Origin: an uncultured Actinomycetes bacterium
GTDB taxonomy: Bacteria > Actinomycetota > Actinomycetes > Mycobacteriales > Jatrophihabitantaceae
Direction: 5' to 3'
Assembly (NCBI GenBank): GCA_963708805.1
Contig: CAVPUA010000003.1
Location: 750,455-814,454, forward strand
Length of the DNA: 64,000 nt
This document shows, piece after piece, positions 8,864 to 58,455 of the stretch. How positions within the stretch are numbered: position 1 is the stretch's first letter; each line of letters starts with the position of its first letter. Under the pieces are notes generated by a model. That model ran no database searches and had not been told where the DNA came from. It saw only the letters and a list, made by a program, of their open reading frames with translations. Made by a program: the position numbers and the translations under genes.

Positions 8864-8870
8864 CAGGTGG

Positions 8871-9080
8871 CTAGTCGCCAGCGAGGTGCGGGCGGTCCTC
8901 GGGGCCGGGGTGTACGTAGCCCAATGACTCGACCGGCAGCGGGAACTCGATGTCGTCGCCGAACGGGGACATCGACCCGGCGTTCTCGGCCGCGAGTTCG
9001 GAGACGTGGAACTCCTCGGCGACGGGCCGGGTGCGGACGGGCGGAAGATACGGCTCGGGAAGGTTCGACTGGCCGGTCAT
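8871..9080 (-). CDS. small conserved hypothetical protein
   Basis: MTGQSNLPEPYLPP... (69 aa) preceded by the SD-like GAAGGGG. High GC3, in contrast with the low-GC3 stretch upstream in the same 235-aa track ORF. Ends 8 nt before the helicase-associated gene. Confidence 0.5.
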   Translation of the reverse strand: MTGQSNLPEPYLPPVRTRPVAEEFHVSELAAENAGSMSPFGDDIEFPLPVESLGYVHPGPEDRPHLAGD

Positions 9081-10453: not shown

Positions 10454-10503
10454 ACCCCGCAGGAGCAGCACGGGGCCGGATAAGTACCCCGGCCGGGCGG
10501 GGG

Positions 10504-23184: not shown

Positions 23185-23252
23185 GTGCGAACGATAGGAG
23201 CCAGAACGTCTGATTCCGTGGAGCACACGCCGTCCGCGGCCGGGAGGAGCAG

Positions 23253-24364
<1,112 letters not shown>

Positions 24365-26302: not shown

Positions 26303-26326
26303 CGTCGAACGGTAGCCTCGCCCGTC

Positions 26327-27366: not shown

Positions 27367-27441
27367 TCCGTTGTAGATGGACTAGTTTGCTGCGTGTAGC
27401 GTCTTCCTCAGATCAGCTGGTGACCAGACTTCGGCAGGAGC

Positions 27442-31996: not shown

Positions 31997-34272
<2,276 letters not shown>

Positions 34273-34377: not shown

Positions 34378-35262
34378 ATGACCTGGCGCGAGATCTCAGC
34401 CGCGCAAGGGGGCGTGATCACCCGCCGGCAGTTGCGCGATTCGACCTGCAGCGACCGGACGATCTCGCGCATGATCCAGCGGGGTGCGCTGCAACGGATC
34501 ACTCGCGGCGGCGTCTACCTGGTCGGCGGAACGCCGTGGTCGGCCGCGGCCCGAACCTGGGCCGGTGTGCTGATGACGGACGGCGTCCTCGGCTTCACAT
34601 CGGCCGCTGTGCTCTGGGGCATGGAGGTGGAGGCGCCGCCGTTCGTGCAGGTGATCGTGCCTACTTCTCGCCGACCGCGGCCCCCGGATTGGGTGCGCGT
34701 TCACCGGTCGTTCGTGCCCTCGTCCGAGGTCGTGCGGCGCGATGGATTGCCGGTCACTTCGCGCGCCCGTACCGCGATCGATCTCATCGGTCATCTGCCA
34801 CGTCGCGACGCGATCCGCTTTGCTGATCGGGCGTTGCAGCGGTCGTGGGTCACCCGAAACCAGCTCGAGCGCCGGTTGGTCGACGAGTCCTTCAAACCGG
34901 GAAACCGCAACCTCCGGACCGTCCTGCATGCGTCGTCGGCCGCGGCGGCCTCCGAGGCGGAGCGGCGCCTACATCAGCTGCTCAGGCGTGCGCGTCTGGT
35001 CGGCTGGGCGGCCAATCACCCAGTGCGAGACGGCTCGCGCGTCGTCGCCGTCATCGACGTGGCGTTCGAGCAGTTGCGGCTGGCCATCGAGGTCGACGGC
35101 TGGGCGTTTCACAGTGACGTGGATCGATTCCGGCGCGACCGACAGCGCCAGAACGATCTCGTCGCGCTGGGCTGGACCGTCCTGCGCTTCACGTGGGCCG
35201 ACCTGAGTGAGCGCCCCGACTATGTGATCGCGCAGATCCGCCACGCGCTTGGACGAACGTAG
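34378..35262 (+). CDS. DUF559 (endonuclease-like) domain protein
   Basis: Intact 294 aa. The C-terminal IEVDGWAFHSD...DRQRQNDLVALGWTVLRFTW is the DUF559/Vsr-like fold signature common in actinobacteria. Confidence 0.65.
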   Translation: MTWREISAAQGGVITRRQLRDSTCSDRTISRMIQRGALQRITRGGVYLVGGTPWSAAARTWAGVLMTDGVLGFTSAAVLWGMEVEAPPFVQVIVPTSRRPRPPDWVRVHRSFVPSSEVVRRDGLPVTSRARTAIDLIGHLPRRDAIRFADRALQRSWVTRNQLERRLVDESFKPGNRNLRTVLHASSAAAASEAERRLHQLLRRARLVGWAANHPVRDGSRVVAVIDVAFEQLRLAIEVDGWAFHSDVDRFRRDRQRQNDLVALGWTVLRFTWADLSERPDYVIAQIRHALGRT

Positions 35263-35290: not shown

Positions 35291-35824
35291 CTAGGGGACG
35301 GGAGCGTTCCACTCGAACGGAACCATGTCGCGCAGCACTCGGCGGCGCTGGTTGCGGGGCAGGTGGTCGATGTAGAGGATGCCCTGCAGATGTTCGGTCT
35401 CGTGCACCAGGCAGCGGGCGAAGAATCCGGTTCCGGTGACCTCGATCGCCCGCCCGGTCTTGTCGACGCCGCGGACGGTCACCACCGACGGTCGCGACAG
35501 GGAGTGGTAGGGCCCCGGCACCGACAGGCAGCCCTCGTCGCCGGCGTCGACGGTGCCTCCGGTGGCCACGATCTGCGGATTGACGACGTGCCCGACGTGT
35601 TTGCGACCCGCGGCGTCGAAGCAGTCGTAGACGAACACGGCCCGGTCGTCGCCGACCTGCGTCGCGGCGAGCCCGACACCTTCGGCCACGTACATCGAGG
35701 CGAACATGTCGTCGATCAGCGTCGCGAGCTCGTCATCGAACGCCTCGACCGGGCGGGTCTTCGCGTGCAGCACGGGATCGCCGACGACGCGGATCTTGCG
35801 GGGAGTTCCTGCCACGGCGGGCAA
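35291..35824 (-). CDS. def: peptide deformylase
   Basis: Intact 177 aa with GVGLAATQVG, EGCLSVPG and HETEHLQG metal-site motifs. Confidence 0.9.
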   Translation of the reverse strand: MPAVAGTPRKIRVVGDPVLHAKTRPVEAFDDELATLIDDMFASMYVAEGVGLAATQVGDDRAVFVYDCFDAAGRKHVGHVVNPQIVATGGTVDAGDEGCLSVPGPYHSLSRPSVVTVRGVDKTGRAIEVTGTGFFARCLVHETEHLQGILYIDHLPRNQRRRVLRDMVPFEWNAPVP

Positions 35825-35867
35825 GTTTACCGGCGCCGCCGCCGGCCTCTCGACTCGTCACGACTCA

Positions 35868-37739
35868 GCCGCGTTCAGCACCGGTCGCAGCGCGTCGAGC
35901 ACAGCCGGGTCCTCGATCGTCGACGGGACGGTCGGCTCACGTCCATCGGCGATCTCGCGCATGGTCTTGCGCAGGATCTTGCCCGAGCGGGTCTTGGGCA
36001 GCCCGTTCACGATCGAGACGTCGCGAAACGCCGCGACCGGGCCGATCTCGCGGCGGACGGCGGCGACCAGCTCGCTCTGCAGGGTCGATCTCGTCGATGT
36101 CGGCGCCGAGCTTGAGCACCACGAGCGCGCGGGGCAGCTGTCCCTTGAGCGGGTCGGCGACGCCGATCACCGCGCACTCGGCTACCGCGGGATGGGCGGC
36201 GACGACCGCCTCGATCGAGCCGGTCGACAGGCGGTGTCCGGCCACGTTGATCACGTCGTCGGTGCGTCCCATGACGAACAGGTAGCCGTCCTCGTCGAAG
36301 TAGCCGCCGTCGCCGCTGAGGTAGAAGCCGGGGTATCGGTGCAGGTACGAGCTCTCGAACCACTCGTCGTCGCCCCACAGGGTGAGCAGCGTTCCGGGCG
36401 GCAGCGGCAGCTGTGATCGCGATCGCGCCGTCGGCACCCGGCGGCCGAGGTGCCGCCGGCGTCGTCGAGCACCTGGACGTCGTAGCCGGGCATCGGCACG
36501 GTCGGCGAGCCGGCCTTGATCGGCAGTGACTCGAGTCCGCGCGGGTTGGCGCAGATCGCCCAGCCGGTCTCGGTCTGCCACCAGTGATCGACGACCGGCA
36601 CGTCGCAGCAGGTCCGACGCCCAGTGGAACGTCTCGGGGTCGAGGCGCTCACCGGCCAGGAACAGCGTCCGCAGGCTCGAGGTCGGTCGACGACCAGCTC
36701 GCCCTGCGGGTCGAGCCGCTTGATCGCGCGCAGCGCGGTGGGAGCGGTGAACAGCGCCTTGACCCCGTGCTCGGCGACCACCCGCCAGAACGCACCCGCG
36801 TCGGGCGTGCCGACCGGCTTGCCCTCGTAGAGGACCGTCGTCGCGCCGGCGAGCAGCGGCGCGTAGACGATGTAGGAGTGCCCGACGACCCAGCCGATGT
36901 CCGAGGCCGTCCAGAACACGTCGTCGGGGCCGATGTCGTAGATGTTGCGCAGCGACCACAGCAGCGCCACCGCGTGCCCACCGTTGTCGCGCACGACGCC
37001 CTTCGGACGGCCGGTCGTCCCGGACGTGTAGAGGATGTAGAGCGGATCGGTCGCCGCGACCGGCAACGCAGTCGGCCGGTTCGGCGGCGGCCATCGCATC
37101 GCGCCAGTCGAGATCGCGCGGGCCCAGCTCGGCGGTCAGCTCCGGCCGCTGGAAGACGATCACCCGCCGCGGCTGATGCGTCGGTGATCGCCAGCGCCTC
37201 GTCGACGATCGGCTTGTAGGCGATCACCCGGCCCGGTTCGATGCCGCACGACGCGATCACCAGCACGGCCGGCCGGGCGTCCTCGATGCGGCTGGCCAGC
37301 TCCGGCGCGGCGAACCCACCGAACACGACCGAGTGGATCGCGCCGAGACGGGCACAGGCGAGCATCGCGATGATCGCCTCGGGAATCATCGGCATGTAGA
37401 TGATCACGCGGTCGCCGGGCTCGACGCCCTCGTTGCGCAGGGCACCGGCGAAGCGCTCGACCGCGGCCAGCAGCTCGGCGTAGGTCAGTGTGCGTGACGC
37501 CGGTGTAAGCGCTGTGATGGATCAACGCCCGATGATCACCGCGTCCGGCCTCGACGTGCCGGTCGAGTGCGTTGTAGGCGGTGTTCAGCCGGCCGTCCGG
37601 GAACCAGCGGTACAGCGGCGCGCGCGAGGGGTCCAGTGCGCGCGTCGGCTTGCGTCTCCCAATCGACCAGTTCGGCCGCCTCGAGCCAGAAGCCCTCGGG
37701 GTCGTCGAGGCTGCGCCGGAACGCCTCGCGATAGGTCAC
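35868..37739 (-). pseudogene. propionyl/acetyl-CoA synthetase-like (PrpE/Acs family) AMP-forming ligase, about 9 frame breaks
   Basis: Starts VTYREAFRRSLDDPEGFW (its GTG overlaps the upstream stop). YILYTSGTTGRPKG, WQTETG, YLSGDGGYFDEDGYLFVMGRTDDVINVAGHRLS and LPKTRSGKILR are readable only across ORFs 37536.., 37160.., 36649.., 36251.. and 35937... The stop is TGA 35868-35870. Confidence 0.8.
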
Positions 37740-39413
37740 GTCACGACCTCGGCGAAGTGCTCGGCGAACTGCTCCCGCAGCTTGAACTTCAGCACCTTGC
37801 CGCCCACGGTCTCGGGCAGGTTGTCGACGAACACGACGTCCTTCGGGCGTCTCGTAGCCGGCCAGTGACGCGCGGCAGTACGCGATCAGGTCGGCGGCGC
37901 TGGTCTCGTCGCCGTCGCGGCGGATCACGACCGCGGTCACGGCTTCGCCCCAGTACGAGTGCGGCAGGCCGATCACCACGGCCTTCTCGACGGCGGGGTG
38001 CAGGCCGAGCACGGCCTCGACGCGCAGGCTCGACACGTTCTCGCCGCCGGTCTTCACGATGTCCTTGTACCGATCGAGCATCACCCGCAGCCCGTCGTCG
38101 TCGTAGGCGCAGCTGTCGCCGGAGTGGAACCAGCCGAAGCGGAAGGCCTGTCGCGTCGCTGGTTCGTCGCGGTAGTAGCCCGACATCATCGACGGCGAGC
38201 GGTAGACGGCCTCACCGGCGACCCCCGGCGAGTCGATCAGGTCCTCGCCGAACGGATCGAGCACGGTCGAGGCGAGCAGCGGGCTCGGCACGCCGACGTA
38301 GTTCTGCTTGGGTGCGGTGCGCGCGTACAACTCGGGCCACCTGTCGGGCCAGAAGCGGTGGCAGGCGATCGACTCGGTCTGCCCGAAGATCTCGAACACC
38401 AAGAGATCCTCGCCGCAGTGCTGCTTCATCGAGGCCAGCACGGGCGGCGGCAGCGCGGCCCAGCCGTAGACGATCACCCCGAGACTGTGGGCGTCGAGTT
38501 CGGCCCGTTGGGTGAGGACGGCGTCGACGCCGGCCACCATTGCCGGCGCGCCCGCCCACCAGGCCGTGACCTTCTCGGCGTCGATCATCTCCGCGATGCC
38601 GGTGGCGTCGGGGCGGCGGCCGAGCACCAGCGTCCCGCCCGACAGGAACACCGAGTAGGTGAACGGCTGGTCGCCGACGTGATAGATCATCGGCAGGAAG
38701 GTGCCGACCCGCAGGTCGGCCTCGAGCTTCAGACCCCGCGTCAAGGACAGGGCGAAGCCGTACGCCGCCATGTAGCTGCAGGTGTGCGAGATCATCACGC
38801 CCTTGGGCATGGCGGTGGTGCCGGACGTGAAGAGGATCTCCCAGATGTCGTCGCCGTGGATCTCGACGTCGGGCTCGGTCGTCGGCTGATCGCGGACGAA
38901 GTCGGTGAACGAGGCGCTGCCGGGCACCGGGCCGCCACCGATCGTGATCGTCACCGCCACCTCGAGCCCGGTCGTGCCGAACGGACCTTCGGCGCGCGGC
39001 CACAGCTCGGCGTCGACGACGGCCAGCTTGGGCTCGACGAGTTCGATCATGGCCTGGACGAGGTCAGGCGCCATCATCGGATTGATCGGCGCGCAGACGA
39101 GCCCCGCCTTGGCCGCCCCCAGCTTGGTCAGGAATCCCTCGACCGAGTTCTCGCAGAACAGGAGCACCACGTCGCCGTGCTGCAGGCCGCGGGCGAGCAA
39201 CGCGTGTGCGATCTGGTTCGCGAGGTGGTCGGCTTCGCGGTAGGTCAGCCGGCGAAAACGCGGATCCCCGTACGCACCCTCGCGGGCCACGAACGCCTCT
39301 TTGTCGGGGAAGCTCCACGTCATCCGCTCGAGCAGGTCGCCGACGCTGGTGCGCTCCCACCGGTGGACGGCTCGGCGGTGGTGCAAGCTGGTGACATCGA
39401 GTTCGGCGTCCAT
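37736..39413 (-). pseudogene. fatty-acyl-CoA synthetase (FadD-like AMP-binding enzyme), one frame break near 37850
   Basis: I chose the start at MDAELDV (ATG 39413). ILFTSGTTAMPKG, GQTES and GWFHSGDSCAYDDDG are present. The C-terminus KDVVFVDNLPETVGGKVLKFKLRE...EVVT is in another frame with its stop at 37736-37738. Confidence 0.8.
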
Positions 39414-39458
39414 GGGCCTCGCACGTCCTCTCTGACAGTGCCGGCGGTCCGGCCGAAC

Positions 39459-39478
39459 TAGTGACCGGCCATTCACTA
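39459..39478. promoter_or_regulatory. inverted repeat TAGTGA-N8-TCACTA in divergent intergenic region (candidate operator)
   Basis: Perfect 6-bp arms sit in the 188-bp gap between the divergent fadD-like and carboxyltransferase genes. A TetR gene lies in the same cluster. Confidence 0.25.
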
Positions 39479-39601
39479 TGCCGCACACTTTAGGCACCAG
39501 GGAGCCCGCTGGAAAGGGCTGAGGCCGATGAGTAGCCAAAGAAGTGAATAGCGGTTAACGTCTGGACGTCGAGTGAGTCAACGCCACCCGAGGAGGCGCG
39601 C

Positions 39602-41200
39602 GTGTCCGTCCTGCGATCGTCGGTGGACACCTCCAGCGAGACCTACCGGGCCAACCGCGCCGGCCAGCTGGCCGCCATCGCCGCCCTCGACGAGCAACTG
39701 GAACTGGCCCGGGCCGGCGGCGGCGCTCAGTACGCCCAGCGCCACCGGGATCGCGGGAAGCTCTTGGCCCGTGAGCGGATCGAGCTACTCGTCGATCGCG
39801 ACTCGCCGCTGCTGGAGTTGTCGACGCTGGCCGCCTGGGGCACGGAGTTCACGGTCGGCGCGAGCATCGTCACCTGCATCGGAGTCGTGTCCGGCGTCGA
39901 GTGTGTGCTGGTCGCCCACGACCCGACGGTGCGGGGCGGCGCGATGAATCCCTACACGCTGCGCAAGTCGCTGCGCGCGCTCGAGATCGCGCGGCGCAAC
40001 CGGCTGCCGGTGATCAACCTCGTCGAGTCGGGCGGCGCCGATCTGCCGACGCAGTCGGATCTCTTCGTCCCGGCCGGCAAGATCTTTCACGACTTGACCG
40101 AGCTGTCGGCGATGGGCATCCCGACCATCGCGCTCGTGTTCGGCAACTCGACCGCGGGCGGGGCGTACGTCCCTGGCATGTGCGACTACTCGGTGCTCGT
40201 CGACCGGCAGGCCAAGGTCTTCCTCGGCGGCCCGCCGCTGGTGAAGATGGCCACCGGCGAGGAGTCCGACGACGAGTCGTTGGGCGGTGCTGACATGCAC
40301 TCGCGGATCTCGGGGGTGTCGGACTACTTCGCGGTCGACGAGCTCGACTGCATCCGCATCGGGCGCGAGATCCTCGAGACGGTCCGCTGGCGCAAGCTCG
40401 GGCCGGCGCCGAGCCTGCCCGCCGACGAGCCGCTCTACGACCCGGACGAGCTGCTCGGCATCACCTCGGCCGACTTCCGCGTGCCCTTCGATCCGCACGA
40501 GGTCCTGGCCCGGGTCGTGGACGGTTCGCGCTTCTCGGAATACAAGACGCGCTACGGCACGAGCCTGGTGACGGGGTGGGCATCGATCCACGGGTTCCCG
40601 GTCGGCGTGCTCGCCAACGCGCGCGGCGTCCTGTTCAGCGAGGAGGCGAAGAAGGCCAGCGAGTTCATCCTGCTGGCCAACCAGAGCGACACGCCGTTGG
40701 TCTTCCTGCAGAACACCACGGGCTACATGGTCGGCGCCGAATACGAACAGGGCGGCATCATCAAGGACGGCGCGAAGATGATCAACGCCGTGACCAACTC
40801 GGCCGTCCCGCACATCACCATGAACCTGGCCGCCTCCTTCGGCGCGGGTAACTACGGCATGTCCGGCCGTGCGTACGACCCTCGGTTCATGTTCGCCTGG
40901 GCCAACGCGAAGCTGGCGGTCATGGGAGCGGCCCAGCTGGCCGGCGTGATGTCGATCGTCGCCAAGCAATCGGCCGAGTCGAGCGGTCGCCCCTTCGACG
41001 CCGACGCCGACGAGCAGCGACGCCAGGCGATCCAGGCCCAGATCGAGCGGGAGTCGGACTCGTTCTTCGTGAGTGCCCGTCTCTACGACGACGGCGTGAT
41101 CGATCCTCGCGACACCCGTTCGGTGCTGGGGATGTCGTTGTCGGCCGCGCATTCCGCACCGGTCGAGGGGCGCCGCGGCTTCGGCGTCTTCCGGATGTAG
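39602..41200 (+). CDS. acyl-CoA carboxylase carboxyltransferase (beta) subunit, MccB/AtuC/AccD1-like
   Basis: Intact 532 aa. VAHDPTVRGGAM, NLVESGGADLPTQ, GNSTAGGAYVPGM and FLGGPPLVKMATGE match the methylcrotonyl/geranyl-CoA carboxylase beta pattern. Confidence 0.85.
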   Translation: MSVLRSSVDTSSETYRANRAGQLAAIAALDEQLELARAGGGAQYAQRHRDRGKLLARERIELLVDRDSPLLELSTLAAWGTEFTVGASIVTCIGVVSGVECVLVAHDPTVRGGAMNPYTLRKSLRALEIARRNRLPVINLVESGGADLPTQSDLFVPAGKIFHDLTELSAMGIPTIALVFGNSTAGGAYVPGMCDYSVLVDRQAKVFLGGPPLVKMATGEESDDESLGGADMHSRISGVSDYFAVDELDCIRIGREILETVRWRKLGPAPSLPADEPLYDPDELLGITSADFRVPFDPHEVLARVVDGSRFSEYKTRYGTSLVTGWASIHGFPVGVLANARGVLFSEEAKKASEFILLANQSDTPLVFLQNTTGYMVGAEYEQGGIIKDGAKMINAVTNSAVPHITMNLAASFGAGNYGMSGRAYDPRFMFAWANAKLAVMGAAQLAGVMSIVAKQSAESSGRPFDADADEQRRQAIQAQIERESDSFFVSARLYDDGVIDPRDTRSVLGMSLSAAHSAPVEGRRGFGVFRM

Positions 41201-41208
41201 GGGACGCG

Positions 41209-43191
41209 ATGACCGAGTTCACCACGCAGATCACCAAGCTGCTCGTCGCCAACCGCGGCGAGATCGCCTCGCGGGTCTTCCGCACGGCCCGGGCGATGGA
41301 CATCGCGACCGTCGCCGTGTTCTCCGACCCCGACGCGGGGCTGCCGTTCGTGACCGATGCCGACGAGGCGGTCCGGCTGCCGGGCTCGACGCCGGCCGAG
41401 ACCTACCTGCGCATCGACGCGATCCTGGCCGCCGCGGCGGCAACCGGCGCGGACGCGGTCCATCCCGGTTACGGCTTCCTGTCCGAGAACGCCGAGTTCG
41501 CCCGCGCCTGCGCCAAGGCCGGATTGATCTTCGTCGGCCCGACGCCGGAGGCGATCGAGGCGATGGGCTCGAAGATCGCCGCCAAGCGGCTGATGGCCGA
41601 GGCCGGCGTCCCCGTGCTCCCGGGGGCCGTCTTCGAGGACGAGCCCGACGCGGACGCGTTGGTCGAGGCGGCCGATGCCGTCGGGTACCCCGCGCTCGTC
41701 AAGGCGGCCTTCGGCGGTGGTGGTCGCGGGATGCGCATCGTCGCCGGTCCCGAAGCGATCGTCGAAGCGGTGGCCGGAGCCCGGCGCGAGGCCGCGTCGG
41801 CGTTCGGCAACGGCACGGTCTTCCTCGAACGGTTCGTCGAGTCCCCGCGGCACATCGAGGTGCAGATCATGGGCGACCAGCACGGGACGGTCGTCCACCT
41901 CTTCGAGCGTGAGTGCTCGATCCAGCGGCGCTACCAGAAGATCATCGAGGAGGCGCCGTCGCCGGCCGTCGATGATCGGCTCCGCGCCGAGCTGTGCCAG
42001 GCGGCCGTGGCGGCGGGCCGGGCCATCGGCTACGTCGGTGCCGGAACGGTCGAGTTCGTCCTCGACGCGTCGGGCCGGTTCTACTTCCTCGAGGTCAACA
42101 CCCGACTGCAGGTCGAGCACCCGGTCACCGAACTGATCACCGGGCTCGACCTGGTACGGCTGCAGCTCGACGTCGCCTCGGGCCGCCCGCTACCGCCCGA
42201 GGTCACCGGCGCGACGTTCTCGGGGCACGCGATCGAGGCGCGGCTCTACGCCGAGGACGTCCCCGGTGGCTACCTGCCGACCAGCGGCGACGTGATCACC
42301 TTCGACATCGAGGCCGCCGACGGCCTGCGCGTCGACGCCGGCTTCGCGTCGGGAACCCGGGTGAGCACGTTCTATGACTCGATGCTGGCCAAGGTCATCG
42401 GCTTCGGCCCCACCCGCGACGACGCCCGGCGCGTCCTGGCCGGGGCGCTGGACCGGGCTCGCCTGCACGGCGTGGTGACCAACCGCGACCTGCTCGTCGA
42501 GGTGCTGCGCGAGGCCGAGTTCGGTGAGGGACGCATCGACACCGGCTATCTCGAACGACATCCGTTCGCCGGTGGCGGCGACGCGAACGACGTTCACGTG
42601 CTGGCCGTCGCCCTGTCCGGCCAGGCCGAACGGCGACTGGTCGCGCCGGTGCTCTCGACGCTGCCCTCGGGGTGGCGCAACAACCCGAGCGGCCCGCAGC
42701 GCGCGAGCTACGACATCGCGGGCCGGACGGTCGAGGCGAGCTACCGGCTGATCGGCGACCGGGTCTCGGCCGCGGTCGACGGGCGTGAGCTCGAGGCGAC
42801 CGTACGGGCCGCGGCGGCCGATCGAGTCGATCTCGAGGTCGACGGGGTGCGCCGCGTGATCGAGGTGCGCCACGTGGGCAGCACGTTCTACGTCGACAGC
42901 TCGCTCGGGCACGACACCCTCGTCGAGGCCGAGCGCTTCCCCGACCCGTCGGCCGTGGCCCATGCCGGGTCGCTGCTGGCGCCGATGCCCGGGACCGTCG
43001 TCCGCGTCGACGTCGCGGTCGGCGACCACGTCGAGGCGGGTGCGGCTCTCCTGGCCATCGAGGCGATGAAGATGGAGCACTCGATCTTCGCGCCGACCCG
43101 GGGCATCGTCACCGAACTGCCGATCGCCGTCGGCGCCCAGGTCGACAGCGGCTCGGTGCTCGCGGTGCTCGAAGAGGAGGAGTCGCAATGA
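41209..43191 (+). CDS. acyl-CoA carboxylase alpha subunit (biotin carboxylase + BCCP domain)
   Basis: Intact 660 aa with an ATP-grasp biotin carboxylase (HPGYGFLSEN, EVNTRLQVEHPVTE) and a C-terminal LAIEAMKMEH biotinylation motif. Confidence 0.9.
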   Translation: MTEFTTQITKLLVANRGEIASRVFRTARAMDIATVAVFSDPDAGLPFVTDADEAVRLPGSTPAETYLRIDAILAAAAATGADAVHPGYGFLSENAEFARACAKAGLIFVGPTPEAIEAMGSKIAAKRLMAEAGVPVLPGAVFEDEPDADALVEAADAVGYPALVKAAFGGGGRGMRIVAGPEAIVEAVAGARREAASAFGNGTVFLERFVESPRHIEVQIMGDQHGTVVHLFERECSIQRRYQKIIEEAPSPAVDDRLRAELCQAAVAAGRAIGYVGAGTVEFVLDASGRFYFLEVNTRLQVEHPVTELITGLDLVRLQLDVASGRPLPPEVTGATFSGHAIEARLYAEDVPGGYLPTSGDVITFDIEAADGLRVDAGFASGTRVSTFYDSMLAKVIGFGPTRDDARRVLAGALDRARLHGVVTNRDLLVEVLREAEFGEGRIDTGYLERHPFAGGGDANDVHVLAVALSGQAERRLVAPVLSTLPSGWRNNPSGPQRASYDIAGRTVEASYRLIGDRVSAAVDGRELEATVRAAAADRVDLEVDGVRRVIEVRHVGSTFYVDSSLGHDTLVEAERFPDPSAVAHAGSLLAPMPGTVVRVDVAVGDHVEAGAALLAIEAMKMEHSIFAPTRGIVTELPIAVGAQVDSGSVLAVLEEEESQ

Positions 43192-43952
43192 CCGAACCCG
43201 TCCAGTACGACGTGGTCAACGGGGTCGCGTGGTTGACGATCAACCGCCCTGAGGCCCGCAACGCGCTCAGCCTGGCCGTCCGGGACGGCCTGTTCACCGG
43301 GGTGCGCCGCTTCAACGCCGACGACGAGGCGAAGGTGCTGGTACTGACCGGGGCCGGAGACCGGGCCTTCTGTGCCGGTGGTGACCTGAAGGAGATGGCC
43401 GACACCACGTTGCGGGTGCCGCCGATCGACTTCGTCCCGCAGTTCGGCCGCAACATCGAGGTCGAGAAGCCGACGATCGCCGCTGTCAACGGGATCGCCT
43501 ACGGCGGCGGGTTCCTGCTCGCCCAGGACTGCGATCTGTGCGTGGCCGGCGAATCGGCCCGTTTCGCGATCAGCGAGGTCAAGGTCGGGCGGGGTTCGCC
43601 GTGGGCGGCTCCGCTCTCGTGGCTGGTGCCGCCCCGCATCGCCATGGAGATCCTGCTGACCGGAGACCCGCTCACCGCCCAGCGGGCGTACGAGGTCGGC
43701 CTCGTCAACCGGGTGGTGCCCGACGCCGATCTGCGCGACACCGTCCAGGCGCTGGCCGAACGGATCGCCACCAACGCGCCGTTGTCGGTCCGCGCCGCCA
43801 AGCGGACGGCCTACCTGTCGGCCCACTTCGAGCTGACCGACGCCTACGACGAGGCCGAACGGATCTGGGAGCCGGTGTATCTCAGCGCCGACGCCCAGGA
43901 GGGCCCGGCCGCGTTCCGCGACAAACGCACGCCCGTCTGGACGGGCCGCTGA
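43188..43952 (+). CDS. enoyl-CoA hydratase/isomerase family protein
   Basis: Intact 254 aa with the crotonase signature FCAGGDLKE. Overlaps the upstream stop by 4 nt. Confidence 0.85.
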   Translation: MTEPVQYDVVNGVAWLTINRPEARNALSLAVRDGLFTGVRRFNADDEAKVLVLTGAGDRAFCAGGDLKEMADTTLRVPPIDFVPQFGRNIEVEKPTIAAVNGIAYGGGFLLAQDCDLCVAGESARFAISEVKVGRGSPWAAPLSWLVPPRIAMEILLTGDPLTAQRAYEVGLVNRVVPDADLRDTVQALAERIATNAPLSVRAAKRTAYLSAHFELTDAYDEAERIWEPVYLSADAQEGPAAFRDKRTPVWTGR

Positions 43953-44750
43953 TGGCCGCCGACCTGACCGCGCTGATCGACGACCTGGTCGCCGAGAGCG
44001 TCGTGATCGACGAGATCATCACACCGCTGAGCCCCGAGCAGTGGACGCTGGCCCACGCCGGCCGAGGGCTGGACGATCGCCGACCAGGTCAGCCACCTCG
44101 CCTTCTTCGACGAGACCACGCTGCTGTCGCTGACCGACCCGGACCGCTTCCGCATCGAGGCCGACGAGCTGATCGCCGGCGGCATGGACTTTCCCGACCG
44201 CGTCGCCGCCCAGCACCACGACCGGCCTGGCGCCGAGTTGCTGGCCTGGTTCGTCCGCGCGCGCCGCGAACTGATCGAGGGCTACCGGGCCGTCGATCCG
44301 GACGTCCGGCTGCCCTGGTACGGCCCGGGCATGGGGCCGGCCTCGTCGGTCACCGCGCGGATCATGGAGACGTGGGCGCACGGCCAGGACATCGCCGATG
44401 CGCTCGGGGTGACCCGGCCGGTGACGAACCGGCTGCGGCACGTCGCTCACCTCGGGGTGCGCAGCCTGCCCTACAGCTACCGCGTGAACGGGCTGGACGT
44501 GCCGTCCGAGCCGATCCGCGTCGAGGTGGCCGCACCCGACGGCGACACCTGGACGTGGGGTCCGGACGCCGCCGCCGATCGAGTGACGGGGGACGCCCTG
44601 GAGTTCTGCCTCGTCGTCACCCAACGGCGCCACCTCAGCGACACCGCGCTCGCGGTCAGCGGTCCGGTGGCCGAGCAGTGGATCGGCATCGCCCAGGCCT
44701 TCGCCGGCGCGGCCGGTACGGGCCGCAAGCCGAGGGGAGACGCGGGATGA
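43952..44750 (+). pseudogene. DinB/MDMPI-fold protein (TIGR03084-like, tentative), one frame break near 44048
   Basis: MAADLTALIDDLVAES...EQWTL is followed in another frame by PTPAEGWTIADQVSHLAFFDE...METWAHGQDIADALG (ORF 44184..44750). Confidence 0.6.
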
Positions 44751-46155
44751 GATCGGTGCGGATCGGCAACTCCTCCGGTTTCTACGGCGACCGCAACGCG
44801 GCCTCGCTCGAGATGGTCGAGGGTGGCCCGATCGACTTCCTGACCGGCGACTATCTGGCCGAGCTGACGATGTTGATCTTGTGGAAGGCCAGACAGAAGG
44901 ATCCATCGGCCGGCTACGCGCGCTCGGTGCTCGGTCAGCTCGAACAGGTGCTGGGCACCTGCCTCGATCGCGGGATCAAGATCGTCAACAACGCGGGTGG
45001 ACTCAATCCGGCCGGCCTGGCCGAGGAGCTGACCGCCCTGGCCGAACGGCTGGGTCTGCACCCCAAGATCGCCTACCTGACCGGTGACGACCTGCTGCCC
45101 GACCTCGACGCGCTCATCGCCGCCGGCCACGACCTGGCCCATCTCGACACCGGGCGGCCCCTCGCCGAGGCGGGCGGCAAGCCGGTGACGGCCAACGCGT
45201 ATCTGGGCGCGTGGGGCATCGTCGACGCGCTGGGCTCGGGAGCCGACATCGTCGATCTGCCCGCGGGTCACCGACGCCTCGCTCGTCGTCGGGCCGGCCG
45301 CCTGGTGGCACGGCTGGGCCCGCGACGACTTCGACCAGCTGGCCGGCGCCGTGCTGGCCGGCCACGTGATCGAGTGCGGACCGCAGGCCACCGGCGGCAA
45401 CTACTCCTACATCGACGAGATCGTCGATCGTCGCTATCCGGGCTTCCCGATCGCCGAGGTGGCCGGCGACGGCAGCTTCGTGATCACCAAGCACGACGAA
45501 CACCGGCGGTCTGGTCTCGGTCGGCACCGTCACCGCTCAACTGATGTACGAGATCGCCGAGCCGGCGTACGCGAACCCGGACGTCATCGCCCACTTCGAC
45601 ACCGCCCAGCTCGATCAGGTCGGCCCGGACCGCGTGCGGTGCTCGGCCACCATGGGCAGCCCGCCACCGGCCACCACCAAGGTCGCGATCAACTTCGTCG
45701 GCGGCTACCGCAACACGATGACGCTCGTCCTGACCGGTCTCGACATCGAGAAGAAGGCGGCGTGGGCGACCGAGGAACTGTTCGGCATCCTCGGTGGGCG
45801 CGACCAGTTCGGCGAGGTCGACGTGCGGCTGATCCGCTTCGACCGTCCGGACGCGCCGACCAACGAGCAGGCCACCGCGCATCTGCGGATCACGGTCAAG
45901 GACGCCGATCCGCGCAAGGTCGGACGGCGGTTCTCGAACGCGACGATGGAGCTCGCGCTCGGCGGCTACGCCGGGTTCCACACCACGACGCCGCCGTGCG
46001 GCGAGAGCGCGTACGGCGTCTACTGGCCGGCCCTCGTCCCCGCCGACGCGCCCCGGCACACGGTCGTGCGGCCGGACGGCAGCACGAAGTTGATCGCGCC
46101 GACGCCGTCCGGTCCGGTGCGGTACTCGGCGATCGTCCGGCCCGATCGACTATGA
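44747..46155 (+). pseudogene. AtuA-family (DUF1446) acyclic-terpene-utilisation-like protein, 2 frame breaks (about 45255 and about 45505)
   Basis: MRSVRIGNSSGFYGDR...DFLTGDYLAELTM is followed by LAGHVIECGPQATGGNY (ORF 45351..) and then LMYEIAEPAYANPDV... (ORF 45544..46155). The start overlaps the upstream stop (ATGA). Confidence 0.7.
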
Positions 46156-46156
46156 C

Positions 46157-46504
46157 TTGACGATCGAGACACAGCGACTCCCGCTCGGGTCGGTCTGCGC
46201 CGCCCGGTCGGGCGACAAGGGCGGCAACGCCAACATCGGGGTCTGGACGCGAGATGCGGCCGGCTACGAGTGGTTGCGTACGTACCTCACCGTCGATCGC
46301 CTGCGCGAGCTGATCCCCGAGGCGGCCGATCGTCCAGTGCGTCGGTACGAACTGGCGAACCTGAACGCGCTCAACTTCGTCATCGTCGGGCTGCTCGGCG
46401 AGGGGGTCGCCGCCTCGACCCGCTCCGACCCGCAGGCCAAGGGGCTGGGCGAGTACCTGCGGTCGCGACTGGTCGACATCCCCGCGGTACTGGTCAGAGG
46501 CTGA
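46157..46504 (+). CDS. AtuA-associated small protein (DUF4387-like, tentative)
   Basis: Intact 115 aa from TTG 46157, 1 nt after the DUF1446 stop. Carries an AARSGDKGGNANIGVW motif. Confidence 0.55.
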   Translation: MTIETQRLPLGSVCAARSGDKGGNANIGVWTRDAAGYEWLRTYLTVDRLRELIPEAADRPVRRYELANLNALNFVIVGLLGEGVAASTRSDPQAKGLGEYLRSRLVDIPAVLVRG

Positions 46505-46506
46505 AC

Positions 46507-47107
46507 GTGGTCACCCCGACCGAACCGGCGCGCCGGCGCGACCCCGAGCGCCGCCAGCGAATACTGACCGCCGCGGCCGATCTGGTCGCCGAGCGGGGCT
46601 ACCACGACGTCGGCATGATCGAGATCGGCGCCGCGGCGGGCATCACCGGCTCGGCGATCTACCGGCACTTCGGCGGCAAGTCGGCCGTCCTCGTCGCGAT
46701 GTTCGACCGGGTCATCGACAATCTCGGGCGCGAGGCCGAGGAGATCGTGGCGGCCGAGACCGAACCCCGCGAGACACTGCGCCGGCTCGTACAGACGCAG
46801 GTGCAGTTCGTCCTGGACGAACGGACGCTGGCGCAGGTCTATCACCACGAGATCGCCAACCTGCCCGAGGAAGACCGCCACCGGTTGCGACGCAAGCAGC
46901 GGCTCTACATCGAGGAGTGGGTGCACGTCCTCGCCGTGCTGCGCCCGGACGTCAACGACGGGCAGCTTGCGCGCGCTCGTGCACGCATCGATCGGCGCGA
47001 TCCAGTCGCAGTTGTTCTACGAGAGCGGCTTGCCCCGAGGGCAACTCGAGCGGCTCATGTCGTCGGTGGCCGAAGAGGCACTGTTCGTACCGGCGGACGA
47101 AGCGTGA
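46507..47107 (+). pseudogene. TetR/AcrR-family regulator, one frame break near 46970
   Basis: HTH ILTAAADLVAERGYHDVGMIEIGAAAGITGSAIYRHFGGK is in the main frame. The C-terminus ALVHASIGAIQSQLFYESGLPRGQLERLMSSVAEEALFVPADEA is in another frame, and its TGA overlaps the next GTG. Confidence 0.75.
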
Positions 47108-48093
47108 CCGCGCGCCTGGACTTCTACACCGGCAACGGGCTGCGTCTGGCCGACGCCGTGACGGTCGCGTCGATCACCGAGGCGGCCGGGCTCGGCGGGT
47201 TGTGGACGCTCGAGGCCCACACCGAGCCGTTCCTGCCGCTCGCTCTGGCCGCCGAGCACACCTCGCGCATCCGGCTCGGCACGTCCGTGGCCGTCGCGCT
47301 GGCCCGCAACCCGATGGTCGTCGCCCATCTGGCCCACGAACTCAATCGATTCGCCGCGGGCCGCTTCGAACTCGGGCTGGGGCCGCAGGTGGGCGCGCAC
47401 ATCGTGCGTCGATACGGCGAGAAGTTCGATCACCCGGCCGAACGGATGGCCGAGTTCGTCGAGGCGCTGCGAGCGATCTGGAGCACCTGGAACGACGGAT
47501 CGCCACTGCGGTTCGAGGGGCGGTTCTACCGGCACACGCTGATGACACCCGCCTTCGATCCCGGGCCGTCGGGCTTCGGCTCGCCGCGGGTGCACCTCGC
47601 CGCCGTCGGCCCGCGCATGGTCGACGTCGCGTGCCGGCTGGCCGACGGCCTCATCGCCCATCCGTTGTCGTCGCCGCGGGTGATCACCGAGCGGCTGCGT
47701 CCGGCCGTCGCCGATGCCGCCCGGCCGGACTTCCAGCTCTCGTGTCCGGTGCTCGTGATCACTGGACGCACCGACGACGAGATCGCCTCGGCCCGGCGGC
47801 AGGTGCGCAAGCAGCTGGCCTTCTACGCCTCGACGCCGTCGTATCGCTCAGTGCTCGAGCTCCACGGGGCGGGCGATGTCGCCGATCGCCTGCGCGAGTT
47901 GTCGAGGACCGGCCAATGGGACGCGATGACCGAGTTGATCAGCGACGAGTTGCTGGCCGAGTTCAGCGTCGAAGCGCCGATCGCGTCACTGGTCGCCCGT
48001 CTGCACGAGCGCTTCGACGACCTGCTCGACGTCGTCCTGATCTATGCGCCGTACGAAGTCGATCATGAGCTCTGGCTCGATCTGAACGTCTAG
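47104..48093 (+). CDS. LLM-class (luciferase-like) probable F420-dependent oxidoreductase
   Basis: 329 aa from GTG 47104 within track ORF 46270..48093. TIM-barrel LLM pattern (GRFELGLGPQVGAHIVRRYG, FEGRFYRH). The stop TAG lies inside the IS481 target duplication. Confidence 0.7.
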   Translation: MTARLDFYTGNGLRLADAVTVASITEAAGLGGLWTLEAHTEPFLPLALAAEHTSRIRLGTSVAVALARNPMVVAHLAHELNRFAAGRFELGLGPQVGAHIVRRYGEKFDHPAERMAEFVEALRAIWSTWNDGSPLRFEGRFYRHTLMTPAFDPGPSGFGSPRVHLAAVGPRMVDVACRLADGLIAHPLSSPRVITERLRPAVADAARPDFQLSCPVLVITGRTDDEIASARRQVRKQLAFYASTPSYRSVLELHGAGDVADRLRELSRTGQWDAMTELISDELLAEFSVEAPIASLVARLHERFDDLLDVVLIYAPYEVDHELWLDLNV

Positions 48094-48116: not shown

Positions 48117-49088
48117 TCAGGTTGCGAGCCGGCTGGTGGGTGGGTGTCCGCCGAGGGCGGAGTGGCCGCGTCGAGTGTTGTAGTAGTGCAGGAAGCGGTC
48201 AAGGCCTTGGCGGCGGAGGTTGTTGCTGGTCCAGGGTCGGGCGTAGGCCCATTCGGTGAGCAGGGTGCGGTTGAATCGTTCGGCTTTGCCGTTGGTCCAG
48301 GGGCAGCCGGGTTTGGTGAAGCGGCGTTTGATTTGCCAGGCCGAGCAGACCCAACCCCAGTCGGTGCCGTGGCGATAGACCAGGGCGTTGTCGGTCAGAA
48401 CACGGCGCACGCGGATGCCGTGGCTGGCGAACCAGGCCAGGGCGCGGTGCAGGAACCCGGCGCTGGTCGGGTCTTTCTCGTCGGCCAGCACTTCGGAGTA
48501 GGCCAGGCGGGTGTGGTCGTCGATGGCGGTGTGGACGTAGTCGTAGCCGATCTTCGTTTTCTTGTGCCGGTTCGTGACCGACACTGCGGCGTCACGGCCG
48601 TGCAGGCGCCACCCGCCGCCGGTGGGGATCTTGCCCAGCTTCTTGACGTCGACGTGGATCATCGCGCCGGGACTGGGATGCTCGTAGCGGTTTTCGCTGC
48701 GCCGGGAGGCCCGGACCCGCTCGCCGGTGATCGGGTCGATCGCCGCCAGATGCGGTACCTGGTGGCGGGCCAGGATCCGGCCGACCGTCGAGGCGTTCAG
48801 GCCGAGCTCGGCCGCGAGCACGACCGCTCCTCGCTTGCGTCGCCGCCGCGCGCTCAGAACACGCTGCTCGATCCGTTTTGGGGTACGAGCCGGCATCCGC
48901 CGCGGCCGCGAAGAACGATCGCGCAGCCCACCATCACCGCCCTCAGCGAAGCGACGAACCCACTTGTTCACGGTGGCGCGTGAGACGCCCAGTTGCTCGG
49001 CGACATGAGCTGGCGGCCAACCCGCCGCCACACGATCGACCATCAACCTGCGCGAGAACGGCGTCGTACGAGCGTTAGCGTGAGCCAT
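48117..49088 (-). CDS. IS481-family transposase (HTH + rve/DDE integrase core)
   Basis: Intact 323 aa with an N-terminal HTH (VAEQLGVSRATVNKWVRRF) and an integrase core (IHVDVKKLG...VLTDNA...PWTNGKAERFNRTL). Confidence 0.9.
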   Translation of the reverse strand: MAHANARTTPFSRRLMVDRVAAGWPPAHVAEQLGVSRATVNKWVRRFAEGGDGGLRDRSSRPRRMPARTPKRIEQRVLSARRRRKRGAVVLAAELGLNASTVGRILARHQVPHLAAIDPITGERVRASRRSENRYEHPSPGAMIHVDVKKLGKIPTGGGWRLHGRDAAVSVTNRHKKTKIGYDYVHTAIDDHTRLAYSEVLADEKDPTSAGFLHRALAWFASHGIRVRRVLTDNALVYRHGTDWGWVCSAWQIKRRFTKPGCPWTNGKAERFNRTLLTEWAYARPWTSNNLRRQGLDRFLHYYNTRRGHSALGGHPPTSRLAT

Positions 49089-49188: not shown

Positions 49189-49194
49189 TCTAGC
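49189..49194. repeat. target-site duplication TCTAGC (right copy)
   Basis: Identical hexamer at 48089-48094. Contains the stop (CTA on the + strand) of the WhiB-like gene. Confidence 0.8.
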
Positions 49195-49960
49195 CCCGCC
49201 ACTTCGGGCCGCGTCCGAGCCGGATCGGTCCGGTCGCGGCGGCGAGTTCGATCGGCTGGCCGCGCTGGGTGATGCGCAGGACGCCCGCGACCCGCAGCGC
49301 TTCGGCGACCGAGCGCGACTGCTCCATCGCCTCGCGCCCCGACACTCCGAAGACGACGCGGGCGGCGTCACTCGGGCAGATCGTCGCCTCGGCCGGTCGG
49401 TGGCGCAGCAGAGCGCGCATGGCTGCCGCCAGGCGAGTTCGCCGCCCGTCGGCCGTCGACGGTTCCCACCACGGTTCGCCCCGTTCTCCGAGAGCGGTTG
49501 CCGCGTCGTCCACGCGCGTCGTCGCGCTGAGGTCCCCGTGGTCGATCGCGCGCCGCGCGCTGGCCAGCTCCGCGAGCAACTCCCCGCGCAGTTGCTTGGG
49601 GATGCCGGGATCGCCACCGGCGTCGGGGGGTTCGAGTGGGCCGACGTCCACGCACGGCTCCGCGGTGGCCCGGCTCGCATCGATCACCGGTCGGCGCAGT
49701 CGGCGACGCTCGTCGTCGTCGAGTCCGCCCCAGACGCCTTCGTAGCCGTTGGCGAGCGCGCTCTCCCGGCAGCGATCGATCACCGGGCAGCGCGCGCAGA
49801 TCGCCTTGGCGGCCGCGACCTGAGCCAGCGCCAGCCGACCCGACCCGACGGGGAAGAACAGCTCGGGGTCCTCGTCGAGACAAGCGGCCCGCCCACGCCA
49901 GTTGCCGCGCAGTTCGTCGACATCGCGAGAGCGGGCCCGAGTGCCCAGTGGTCGGGTCAT
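49190..49960 (-). CDS. WhiB-like Fe-S transcription factor fused to a DUF3253-like C-terminal domain
   Basis: ATG 49960 inside track ORF 49190..50287 gives 256 aa. Four-Cys pattern AAC...CARCPVIDRC plus GVWGG and an ERRRL basic patch. The C-terminal ICPSDAARVV...GVLRITQRGQPIE...GPIRLGRG resembles DUF3253. Confidence 0.7.
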   Translation of the reverse strand: MTRPLGTRARSRDVDELRGNWRGRAACLDEDPELFFPVGSGRLALAQVAAAKAICARCPVIDRCRESALANGYEGVWGGLDDDERRRLRRPVIDASRATAEPCVDVGPLEPPDAGGDPGIPKQLRGELLAELASARRAIDHGDLSATTRVDDAATALGERGEPWWEPSTADGRRTRLAAAMRALLRHRPAEATICPSDAARVVFGVSGREAMEQSRSVAEALRVAGVLRITQRGQPIELAAATGPIRLGRGPKWRG

Positions 49961-50412
49961 GGCTCGAGCGCCCGCGCCCGGAGACGACGGACTCCGACCA
50001 GGACTAGCACCGCCGACCCGACGCCCAGGAGCAGGCGGCGAGGCAGCGAGGTGAGCACGGCCGACCCGATTGCGATCGGGTGGCCGAACTCGACGTGGGG
50101 GCTGCCGGTGGCGATCCGCCCGCTGGTGGAGCCGCGACCGCGTCCGAGCTGAACGACGGTCCCGCGTGAGCCGGTGACCTCGACGGACAAGCCGGCGCCA
50201 TCGAGCGCGGTGGCGGCCTGGGTGATCACGGTCCGGGCCGACGCCCGGGACCCGACGGACCGCACCGCTCGCGCGGTCTCCGCCCACAGCGCCGACGCGT
50301 CGTCGGTGACGAGCCGCAGGTGGGTGCCGTCGGCGAGCAGGCGGGCATGGTGCGCGCCCACCTGGATGTCCAGGTCTGAGCTCACCTCGAACTCGCCGCC
50401 GGTGTCGCTCAC
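49957..50412 (-). CDS. hypothetical protein with C-terminal TM anchor
   Basis: GTG 50412 (VSDTGGEFEV...) gives 151 aa. Its start overlaps the upstream stop (GTGA) and its stop overlaps the WhiB-like ATG (ATGA). C-terminal hydrophobic LLLGVGSAVLVLVGV. Confidence 0.5.
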   Translation of the reverse strand: MSDTGGEFEVSSDLDIQVGAHHARLLADGTHLRLVTDDASALWAETARAVRSVGSRASARTVITQAATALDGAGLSVEVTGSRGTVVQLGRGRGSTSGRIATGSPHVEFGHPIAIGSAVLTSLPRRLLLGVGSAVLVLVGVRRLRARALEP

Positions 50413-58453: not shown

Positions 58454-58455
58454 GA

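Follow-up and report, generated by a model that had tools for sequence, protein, structure and literature searches.

A frameshift-rich copy of an atu-like acyl-CoA carboxylase operon, widely conserved in Actinomycetota and probably directed at methyl-branched acyl chains

We analysed a 64,000-nucleotide stretch of DNA from an uncultured bacterium of the Actinomycetes (Jatrophihabitantaceae; GenBank assembly GCA_963708805.1, contig CAVPUA010000003.1, positions 750,455 to 814,454), hereafter the window, and focus on a gene cluster at ~35858-48093 of it. The cluster encodes a biotin-dependent acyl-CoA carboxylase together with AtuA, a protein otherwise known from the atu pathway of acyclic terpene degradation in Pseudomonas. 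Two minus-strand ligase genes diverge from seven plus-strand genes, and five of the nine genes are interrupted by changes of reading frame. Because long spurious open reading frames (ORFs) are common at the ~70% G+C of the window, genes were defined by codon-position GC, Pfam and NCBIfam matches and comparison with intact relatives. The genes of the cluster, followed by its two neighbours, are:

35858-37739, minus strand: Lig1, ACS/PrpE-like short-chain acyl-CoA synthetase (Pfam ACAS_N, AMP-binding and AMP-binding_C, as pieces in three frames)
37736-39413, minus strand: Lig2, medium/long-chain-type acyl-CoA ligase (Pfam AMP-binding, 9.8e-62, and AMP-binding_C)
39602-41200, plus strand: carboxyltransferase (CT), the beta subunit, assigned to the lineage of 3-methylcrotonyl-CoA carboxylase (MCC) as well as geranyl-CoA carboxylase (GCC), intact (Pfam Carboxyl_trans, 1.9e-131)
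41209-43191, plus strand: alpha subunit with biotin carboxylase, BT and biotin carboxyl carrier regions (BC), intact (Pfam Biotin_carb_N, CPSase_L_D2, Biotin_carb_C, BT_MCC_alpha at 1.1e-11, and Biotin_lipoyl)
43188-43952, plus strand: crotonase-family enoyl-CoA hydratase (ECH), intact (Pfam ECH_1, 4.9e-52)
43952-44750, plus strand: TIGR03084 metal-binding protein (DinB in gene orders), with a DinB/maleylpyruvate-isomerase-type fold and a C-terminal domain (TIGR03084 profile)
44747-46504, plus strand: AtuA, a DUF1446/PF07287 body with a C-terminal PF23544 ferredoxin-like domain carrying an RSGDKGGNAN motif (Pfam)
46507-47107, plus strand: TetR-family regulator (Pfam TetR_N, 2.9e-13, and partial TetR_C_24)
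47104-48093, plus strand: TIGR03617 (MSMEG_2256-type) F420-dependent luciferase-like (LLM) oxidoreductase, no frameshift detected (Bac_luciferase, 1.7e-57)
35291-35824: peptide deformylase, preceding the cluster (Pfam)
48117-49088, minus strand: IS481-type transposase, bounding the cluster and outside the pathway (Pfam rve_3, HTH_23 and LZ_Tnp_IS481)

An earlier, sequence-only reading of this DNA had essentially the right genes, order and coordinates. Its mostly 4-nt overlaps are present at four junctions (Lig2/Lig1, BC/ECH, DinB/AtuA and TetR/LLM), with a 1-nt overlap at ECH/DinB, and the luciferase-like enzyme that it called possibly F420-dependent is of F420 type by its match to TIGR03617 (391.8 bits, above the curated cutoff of 278.15). 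Other assignments are looser. With its frames stitched together, Lig1 falls short of two curated models, reaching 709.8 bits for NF007815 propionate-CoA ligase, whose cutoff is 955, and 633 for acetate-CoA ligase, whose cutoff is 657, and the top NCBIfam match of Lig2, PRK08316 fatty acyl-CoA synthetase, is under its cutoff. For the crotonase, no NCBIfam model reaches its cutoff, and the nearest PDB sequences are mycobacterial EchA1-like or 'carnitinyl-CoA dehydratase' structural-genomics entries. Two further ORFs, one of 220 aa on the minus strand at 46264-46926 and one at 46917-48068, were rejected as spurious products of high GC, as they have no Pfam match and the wrong codon-position GC pattern.

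Correcting for frame changes removes one gene from the earlier list. The supposed small RSGDKG-motif partner of AtuA, a 115-aa ORF at 46157-46504, matches PF23544, the AtuA ferredoxin-like domain (74.6 bits, cutoff 27), while the preceding AtuA fragment matches PF07287 (190.5 bits, cutoff 22.8). Both domains lie in a single ORF in 58 of 66 related loci and in all of the best 120 AtuA homologs, which are 564-652 aa long, and the 601-aa AtuA of Streptomyces muensis aligns end to end with the two pieces in the window. The eight loci with a separate PF23544 ORF are nearly all MFD or European Nucleotide Archive (ENA) contigs, taken as of long-read type. Given this fusion in relatives, the sequence comparison identifies the small ORF as the C-terminal tail of AtuA, detached by a frame change at 46131-46181. 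Likewise, TetR and LLM share a 607-aa ORF (46270-48093) because a frameshift in TetR removes its stop codon. A true TetR-LLM fusion was rejected, as the C-terminal half of TetR continues in another frame and ends in a GTGA overlap on the LLM start. In one MFD metagenome-assembled genome (MAG; locus L085, 14371-17031), TIGR03084 and AtuA are called as a single 886-aa protein. A true fusion of the two would be strong evidence for a physical complex, but none of the best 120 AtuA homologs is that long, and we set this case aside as a probable assembly indel.

A scan with CT of one genome per GTDB species gave 80 loci at 77-90% identity, onto which the window proteins were mapped. Their hosts include Pseudonocardiaceae, Streptosporangiaceae, Streptomyces, Mycobacterium/Mycolicibacterium, Frankia, Klenkia, Amycolatopsis, Prauserella, Actinomycetospora and Sciscionella, among others; S. 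muensis, Sciscionella marina, Klenkia and Prauserella are examples of cultured hosts. The top CT matches overall are two ENA metagenome contigs, L081 (94%) and L084 (92%); GTDB species representatives reach at most 90%, and CT homologs 85-94% identical occur in many actinobacterial MAGs. Occurrence of each gene was counted in the 53 species-representative loci with complete 10-kb flanks:

BC: 52 of 53
TIGR03084: 50 of 53
AtuA: 48 of 53
ECH: 47 of 53
TetR: 42 of 53
Lig2: 38 of 53
orthologous acyl-CoA dehydrogenase (ACAD): 35 of 53
LLM: 7 of 53
ACS-like Lig1: 1 of 53

The core CT-BC-ECH-TIGR03084-AtuA is thus conserved in ~50 of 53 species-level loci, with AtuA and TIGR03084 accompanying the carboxylase in ~90% of loci, where stop and start codons frequently overlap. 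The DinB-fold gene, proposed in the sequence-only reading as an actinobacterial addition, is a true core member, whereas LLM, proposed alongside it, is an occasional accessory. Lig1 is an accessory gene as well. Annotated loci show the range of arrangements (a slash marks the divergent spacer):

L084 (intact): Lig1-Lig2 / CT-BC-ECH-DinB-AtuA-TetR
L082, S. muensis DSM 103493 (intact): BioY-Lig1-Lig2 / CT-BC-ECH-DinB-AtuA-TetR-ACAD-ECH2-LLM, then a short-chain dehydrogenase/reductase (SDR)
L085 (intact): ...AtuA-TetR-ACAD

Beyond the window, just four of the loci examined carry Lig1 (L081, L084, L078 and S. muensis). LLM follows TetR in the nearest subclade of the window (L007, L010, L011, L014, L022 and L023) and is also present in S. 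muensis, the only locus where an SDR adjoins the cluster. The ACAD reported as missing is indeed missing from the 64-kb window, but this does not hold as a property of the system: since relatives usually have the gene, its absence here is local. LLM as a substitute for it was discarded, as S. muensis has both. In that species ACAD and a second crotonase stand between TetR and LLM, while in the window an intact IS481-type element comes directly after LLM. S. muensis also carries a BioY biotin transporter gene beside the cluster (L082, 5416-6003; 1 of 53 complete loci), which fits a biotin-dependent pathway.

We next consider the class of the carboxylase. The best PDB sequence matches of CT are human MCC-beta (531.7 bits), P. 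aeruginosa MCC-beta (529), Mycobacterium tuberculosis AccD1 (508) and GCC-beta (451), and those of the alpha subunit are the MCC-alpha-type chains 9yx0_D and 3u9s_A (527 bits). The beta subunits of MCC and GCC have an extended N-terminal segment of ~30 residues that is absent from the beta subunit of propionyl-CoA carboxylase (PCC) (Jurado et al. 2015, PMC4673880). Judged by alignment, CT belongs to this gamma-carboxylating MCC/GCC lineage: its match to the N-termini of MCC-beta 3u9r_B and GCC-beta 5ikl_B begins at residue 1-4, and that to PCC-beta chains at ~26-34.

Within the lineage, the acyl pocket separates the two enzymes. MCC-beta has Phe191 after a 3-residue insertion, while GCC-beta has Gly162 and no insertion, leaving the pocket open for a second isoprene unit (PMC4673880). 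Four MCC-type chains (P. aeruginosa, human, M. tuberculosis AccD1 4q0g and 9tps) read 'P-D-R-(E/D)-H-F-G' or equivalent, with the 3-residue insertion. In CT, by contrast, the sequence is 'FVPAGKIF', lacking the insertion as well as a Phe at the Phe191 site, and CT aligns without gaps to GCC-beta 5ikl_B over 119 residues of the alpha3-alpha5 pocket region. At the Gly162 site CT has the small residue Ala158, in a register possibly off by +/-1; the preceding residue is variable, with Gly in 71 of 120 homologs, and 'AGKIF' is invariant among the 120. The pocket thus appears GCC-like, with Ala in place of the blocking Phe, and predicts an acyl group larger than 3-methylcrotonyl-CoA. Because CT lacks the MCC Phe191 and insertion, and because AtuA is a core gene, the branched acyl-CoA carboxylase cluster that had earlier been described as atu/liu-type can be narrowed to atu-like.

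The likeness to Pseudomonas atuR-atuABCDEFGH, the geranyl-CoA carboxylase pathway, extends to other components. Both systems have an AtuA with a ferredoxin-like C-terminal domain and MCC/GCC-lineage beta (AtuC-like) and alpha (AtuF-like) subunits. The crotonase, an AMP-forming ligase and TetR correspond in role or position to AtuE, AtuH and AtuR, although the crotonase and ligases are not established orthologs of AtuE and AtuH, and most related actinobacterial loci, unlike the window, have an ACAD in the role of AtuD, as in atu. As in GCC, neither the insertion nor the Phe of MCC is present in the pocket of CT, which has Ala instead of the GCC Gly. The differences are also clear. The short-chain dehydrogenases AtuB and AtuG have no counterpart in the actinobacterial cluster; TIGR03084 stands between hydratase and AtuA in ~94% of actinobacterial loci, unlike in atu; the ACS/PrpE-like ligase, F420-type LLM and second crotonase are optional additions that atu lacks; and AtuA comes last in the order CT-BC-ECH-DinB-AtuA, whereas in atu it comes first.

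In the atu pathway, carboxylation and hydration are followed by cleavage of a 3-hydroxy-3-alkylglutaryl-CoA to a 3-oxoacyl-CoA and acetate, according to a review. Over +/-10 kb in L082, L084 and L085, the Pfam calls included neither an HMGL-type nor an HpcH/CitE-type family, and the literature searched gave no biochemical function for AtuA in the atu pathway. We modelled the fold of AtuA from the intact L084 ortholog (pLDDT 73.8, pTM 0.77) and compared it by Foldseek. The only significant PDB match was 9evf_A, 'Citramalate lyase-ADP-pyruvate complex' (E 3.6e-15), and in the model the body and the C-terminal domain of AtuA strongly match the folds of the catalytic chain and the small chain of citramalate lyase, respectively. 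That enzyme (CmlAB of Raoultella planticola; PDB 9ERQ/9EVF) is made of two subunits, an AtuA-family chain and a DUF4387 chain, whereas here the two are fused in a protein of ~590 aa. The contexts differ too, as citramalate lyase belongs to the methylaspartate pathway and AtuA here to a carboxylase operon; in a 2015 paper, enterobacteria had already been noted to carry a DUF1446 gene next to their methylaspartate-pathway genes. Citramalate cleavage removes acetate from a tertiary 3-hydroxy acid, and is thus the same chemistry as the atu step, although the substrate is citramalate in one case and presumably a CoA thioester with a long alkyl group in the other. Because of this fold match, and because the clusters have no HMG-CoA-lyase or CitE-type gene (HMG, 3-hydroxy-3-methylglutaryl), we suggest that AtuA may supply the lyase step.

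The second core protein of unusual type, TIGR03084, matches its profile at 339.7 bits (cutoff 247.95) over the whole length. Sequence searches gave no PDB matches for it, and relatives were found only by fold comparison. The best structural match of its model is mycothiol-dependent maleylpyruvate isomerase (MDMPI), and the C-terminal part of the model resembles SCP2 lipid-binding folds. Compared with the MDMPI of C. glutamicum (PDB 2NSF/2NSG) and the TIGR03083 DinB superfamily, identity is 14%, the NCBIfam families are separate, and the context is acyl-CoA metabolism rather than gentisate degradation. Geranyl-CoA carboxylase uses the cis isomer of its substrate (PMC4673880).

The divergent spacer between Lig2 and CT is 188 nt long and poorly conserved in a cross-species alignment, except for two palindromic blocks:

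39459-39480: candidate TetR site 1, inverted repeat AGTGAC-N8-TTCACTA, read directly from the sequence
39541-39560: candidate TetR site 2, pseudo-palindrome AAGTGAAT-N4-GTTAAC, ~45 nt upstream of the CT start

The motif of site 1 is kept in eight relatives (L084, L007, L008, L011, L014, L015, L002 and L085). Site 2 is the best-conserved block of the spacer, with invariant columns, and reads AGTnAAT-N4-(A/G)TT(C/A)AC(T) in 13 loci including S. muensis and Trebonia. A repeat search of the intergenic region by itself gave weak palindromes only. The stitched TetR scores 167.8 bits against NF050111, 'SACE_7040 family', under the cutoff of 250, and is thus related to this family and not a member by threshold. 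It is plausible, from the conservation of the two palindromes, that they are the sites of the cluster's own TetR, which is likely a repressor of the divergent promoters.

Taken together, we consider it probable that the cluster is a copy of a widely conserved, uncharacterised operon of Actinomycetota, the counterpart of Pseudomonas atu, that carries out a 'beta-methyl excision' of 3-methyl-branched, isoprenoid-like acyl chains, and that its indels are artefactual. Chains with a 3-methyl branch are blocked for ordinary beta-oxidation, and the operon would remove the branch by carboxylation, hydration and cleavage. Lig2, a ligase by family, would form the CoA ester of the branched acid. ACAD would convert this ester to a 3-methyl-2-enoyl-CoA; for the window, the enzyme may be encoded elsewhere or the substrate may already be unsaturated. 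The alpha/beta biotin carboxylase, as its lineage indicates, would then carboxylate the 3-methyl group, and the crotonase would hydrate the product to a 3-hydroxy-3-alkylglutaryl-CoA. A retro-aldol reaction by AtuA would take off acetate, so that the 3-oxoacyl-CoA could re-enter beta-oxidation, and Lig1, where present, would re-activate the released acetate. TetR would repress both divergent promoters via the two conserved palindromes, with the F420-type LLM as an occasional accessory.

Several observations weigh against this proposal. For the lyase step, single-sequence and profile searches returned no PDB relatives of AtuA; the protein is only 15-16% identical to the citramalate lyase chain; its model is of moderate confidence (pLDDT 73.8); the known citramalate lyase acts on a free acid rather than a CoA ester; and in Pseudomonas a review attributes the step to LiuE. 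For the carboxylase, full-length CT scores somewhat higher with MCC-beta (~530 bits) than with GCC-beta (451), and its selectivity residue is Ala and not the Gly of GCC. Of the partner enzymes, an ACAD homolog is absent from the whole window, AtuB/AtuG-type short-chain dehydrogenases are absent between 35.8 and 48.1 kb, and orthology of the crotonase to AtuE or LiuC is not demonstrable from sequence. A role of TIGR03084 as an isomerase is an idea taken from fold analogy. Literature searches found no paper on the actinobacterial cluster or on TIGR03084, 'Atua' mostly matching a Portuguese word. Lastly, the frameshifts are very unevenly distributed along the window, and their attribution to assembly error is indirect.

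The same chemistry could also serve other substrates, such as C24-methyl or C24-ethyl sterol side chains, acids derived from phytol or farnesol, or products of polyisoprenoids (rubber). This possibility refines the proposed branch-removal pathway rather than contradicting it, with an ethyl branch leading to release of propionate instead of acetate. In mycobacteria, it is established that C24 branches are removed by a carboxylation-dependent route during sitosterol degradation. The highest scores of Lig1 are to propionate-CoA ligase models, Lig2 resembles medium/long-chain ligases, the C-terminal part of TIGR03084 may have a lipid-binding, SCP2-like fold, and the organisms with the cluster are soil actinomycetes. 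The flanks of L082, L084 and L085 contain no steroid-catabolic, Lcp or P450 genes, and we regard these particular substrates as unlikely.

A different question is whether the frame changes reflect a cluster that is truly decaying, with the ligases, the DinB-fold gene, AtuA and TetR as pseudogenes and the carboxylase and hydratase kept by selection, perhaps for another role. We placed the changes by three-frame translation and tblastn with the intact L084 proteins. Lig1 has at least six, the 627-aa L084 ortholog matching pieces in frames -3/-1/-2/-3/-1/-3/-1. Lig2 is 88% identical to its L084 ortholog over residues 1-524, after which a single +1 frameshift (~37844-37847) removes the last ~35 residues; compared with L007 and L010, a G-run there is longer by one G. 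There is one +1 frameshift in the TIGR03084 gene (~44052), three frame changes in AtuA (~45255, ~45497 and 46131-46181), and one +1 frameshift in TetR (~46960-46967), whose pieces in two frames align to the L084 TetR. CT, BC and ECH have none across 4.35 kb. Where an indel of the cluster can be assigned an exact position, it is one surplus base in the window; two of these bases fall within G or C runs.

The contrast between 12-14 frame changes in five genes and none in CT-BC-ECH, together with the at least six in Lig1 by itself and the adjoining IS481-type transposase, would fit decay. To set this contrast against the rest of the window, we applied a frame-aware hidden Markov model to its whole length and counted same-strand frame switches away from gene boundaries. 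There were ~12 in the 12.6 kb of cluster coding sequence and ~30 in the 41.8 kb outside, a similar density (~0.95 vs 0.72 per kb). Along the window they number ~1 in 1-9.8 kb, ~28 in 9.8-34.3, ~12 in 35.3-48.1 and ~1 in 48.1-64. Long stretches without frameshifts exist elsewhere (such as 5357-8871 and most of 50-64 kb), and as some of them are comparable in length, the clean 4.35 kb of CT-BC-ECH does not stand out. Outside the cluster, frameshifts of the same kind split housekeeping genes, and in all six examined a single Pfam domain is continuous over the junctions of the stitched protein:

~16384-17295: pabB, frame-split
~23142-24335: serC-like aminotransferase gene, frame-split
~26309-27352: murB, frame-split, with the MurB domain continuous across the junctions
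~27427-28879: aldehyde dehydrogenase gene, three junctions
~29245-30168: gabT, four junctions
~33250-34269: asd (aspartate-semialdehyde dehydrogenase), frame-split

Both murB and asd are normally indispensable for cell-wall synthesis. A free-living actinomycete with both genes frameshifted is very unlikely, and technical error is therefore favoured. The nearest relative points the same way: in L081 (ENA ERZ25039594 contig_128495), the closest contig at 94% CT identity, the breaks fall in BC, ECH and AtuA. L081 is more error-rich than the window, with BC in at least three called genes, AtuA in two and ~100 single-base gaps against the window. Among species representatives, those nearest to the window are MAGs labelled 'MFD' whose contigs are named contig_N, and we take these MAGs to be long-read Microflora Danica assemblies. 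Moreover, frameshifts aside, the supposed pseudogenes share 76-90% identity with intact orthologs and contain neither in-frame stops nor large deletions. The frame changes in the ligases, DinB-fold gene, AtuA and TetR are thus most likely long-read consensus errors rather than pseudogenisation, and real decay of the cluster is improbable. The earlier remark that the carboxylase and hydratase genes are intact while others carry indels stands as a description of the letters; as a biological statement it falls, given frameshifts across the window and a relative that is broken in different genes. Such patterns in this window are most likely a matter of how good the assembly is and should not be taken as evidence of decaying genes.

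Returning to the atu-like assignment, the cluster might still be an ordinary liu-type 3-methylcrotonyl-CoA carboxylase operon for leucine and isovalerate, with the extra genes as passengers. It shares with liuRABCDE and mycobacterial AccA1/AccD1 the carboxylase lineage, the subunit architecture and the position of a hydratase after the carboxylase. By full-length score, MCC subunits are the top PDB matches of both CT and BC, and a BT_MCC_alpha domain is present in the alpha subunit. Unlike those systems, CT lacks both features of MCC-beta described by Jurado et al., which a true actinobacterial MCC-beta, AccD1 of M. tuberculosis (4q0g), possesses. No isovaleryl-CoA dehydrogenase and no HMG-CoA lyase or CitE-type gene is present in the window or in L082, L084 and L085, and AtuA and TIGR03084, which liu and AccA1/AccD1 lack, are no passengers, given their co-conservation with the carboxylase. 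A leucine operon is thus an improbable explanation. A biosynthetic role, in which the carboxylase would make unusual extender or starter units for a polyketide or lipid, is very improbable: many acyl-CoA carboxylases do serve biosynthesis in actinobacteria and the SACE_7040 family is named after a regulator affecting morphogenesis in Saccharopolyspora erythraea, but CT lies in the gamma-carboxylating MCC/GCC lineage and not in the alpha-carboxylating lineage of PCC and acetyl-CoA carboxylase that makes extender units, polyketide synthase, nonribosomal peptide synthetase and fatty acid synthase genes are absent from the flanks of L082, L084 and L085, and the partner genes (ligase, ACAD, hydratase and AtuA) are catabolic in type.

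The Pseudomonas atu system is the textbook route for acyclic terpene degradation. Across dozens of lineages of actinobacteria, the genes for a GCC-type carboxylase, a hydratase, AtuA and an MDMPI-like metalloprotein occur as a set that has no conventional lyase, and PDB entries from 2025 present an AtuA-family protein as a citramalate lyase. This co-occurrence and these structures together suggest testable functions, that of the lyase for AtuA and that of an auxiliary metalloenzyme for TIGR03084, and the operon points to a probably widespread route of soil actinomycetes for methyl-branched isoprenoid acids. The copy in the window, riddled with errors, belongs to a widespread atu-module variant and is not otherwise special.

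Four further features were seen elsewhere in the window. At 9880-11600 (minus strand), stitched translations look by eye like menaquinone genes of the futalosine pathway (MqnA/MqnB-like), in several frames. An AbiEi-antitoxin/DUF559 (REase_MTES_1575) ORF lies at 34378-35262 (plus strand), just upstream of the peptide deformylase gene. A single 365-aa ORF at 49190-50287 (minus strand) has WhiB and DUF3253 domains and may be two genes merged by an indel. At 57332-59659 (minus strand), a gene for a flavohaemoglobin-like protein with globin and FAD/NAD reductase parts is followed directly downstream by one for a bacterial nitric-oxide synthase oxygenase (PF02898, 1e-147), and both look intact.

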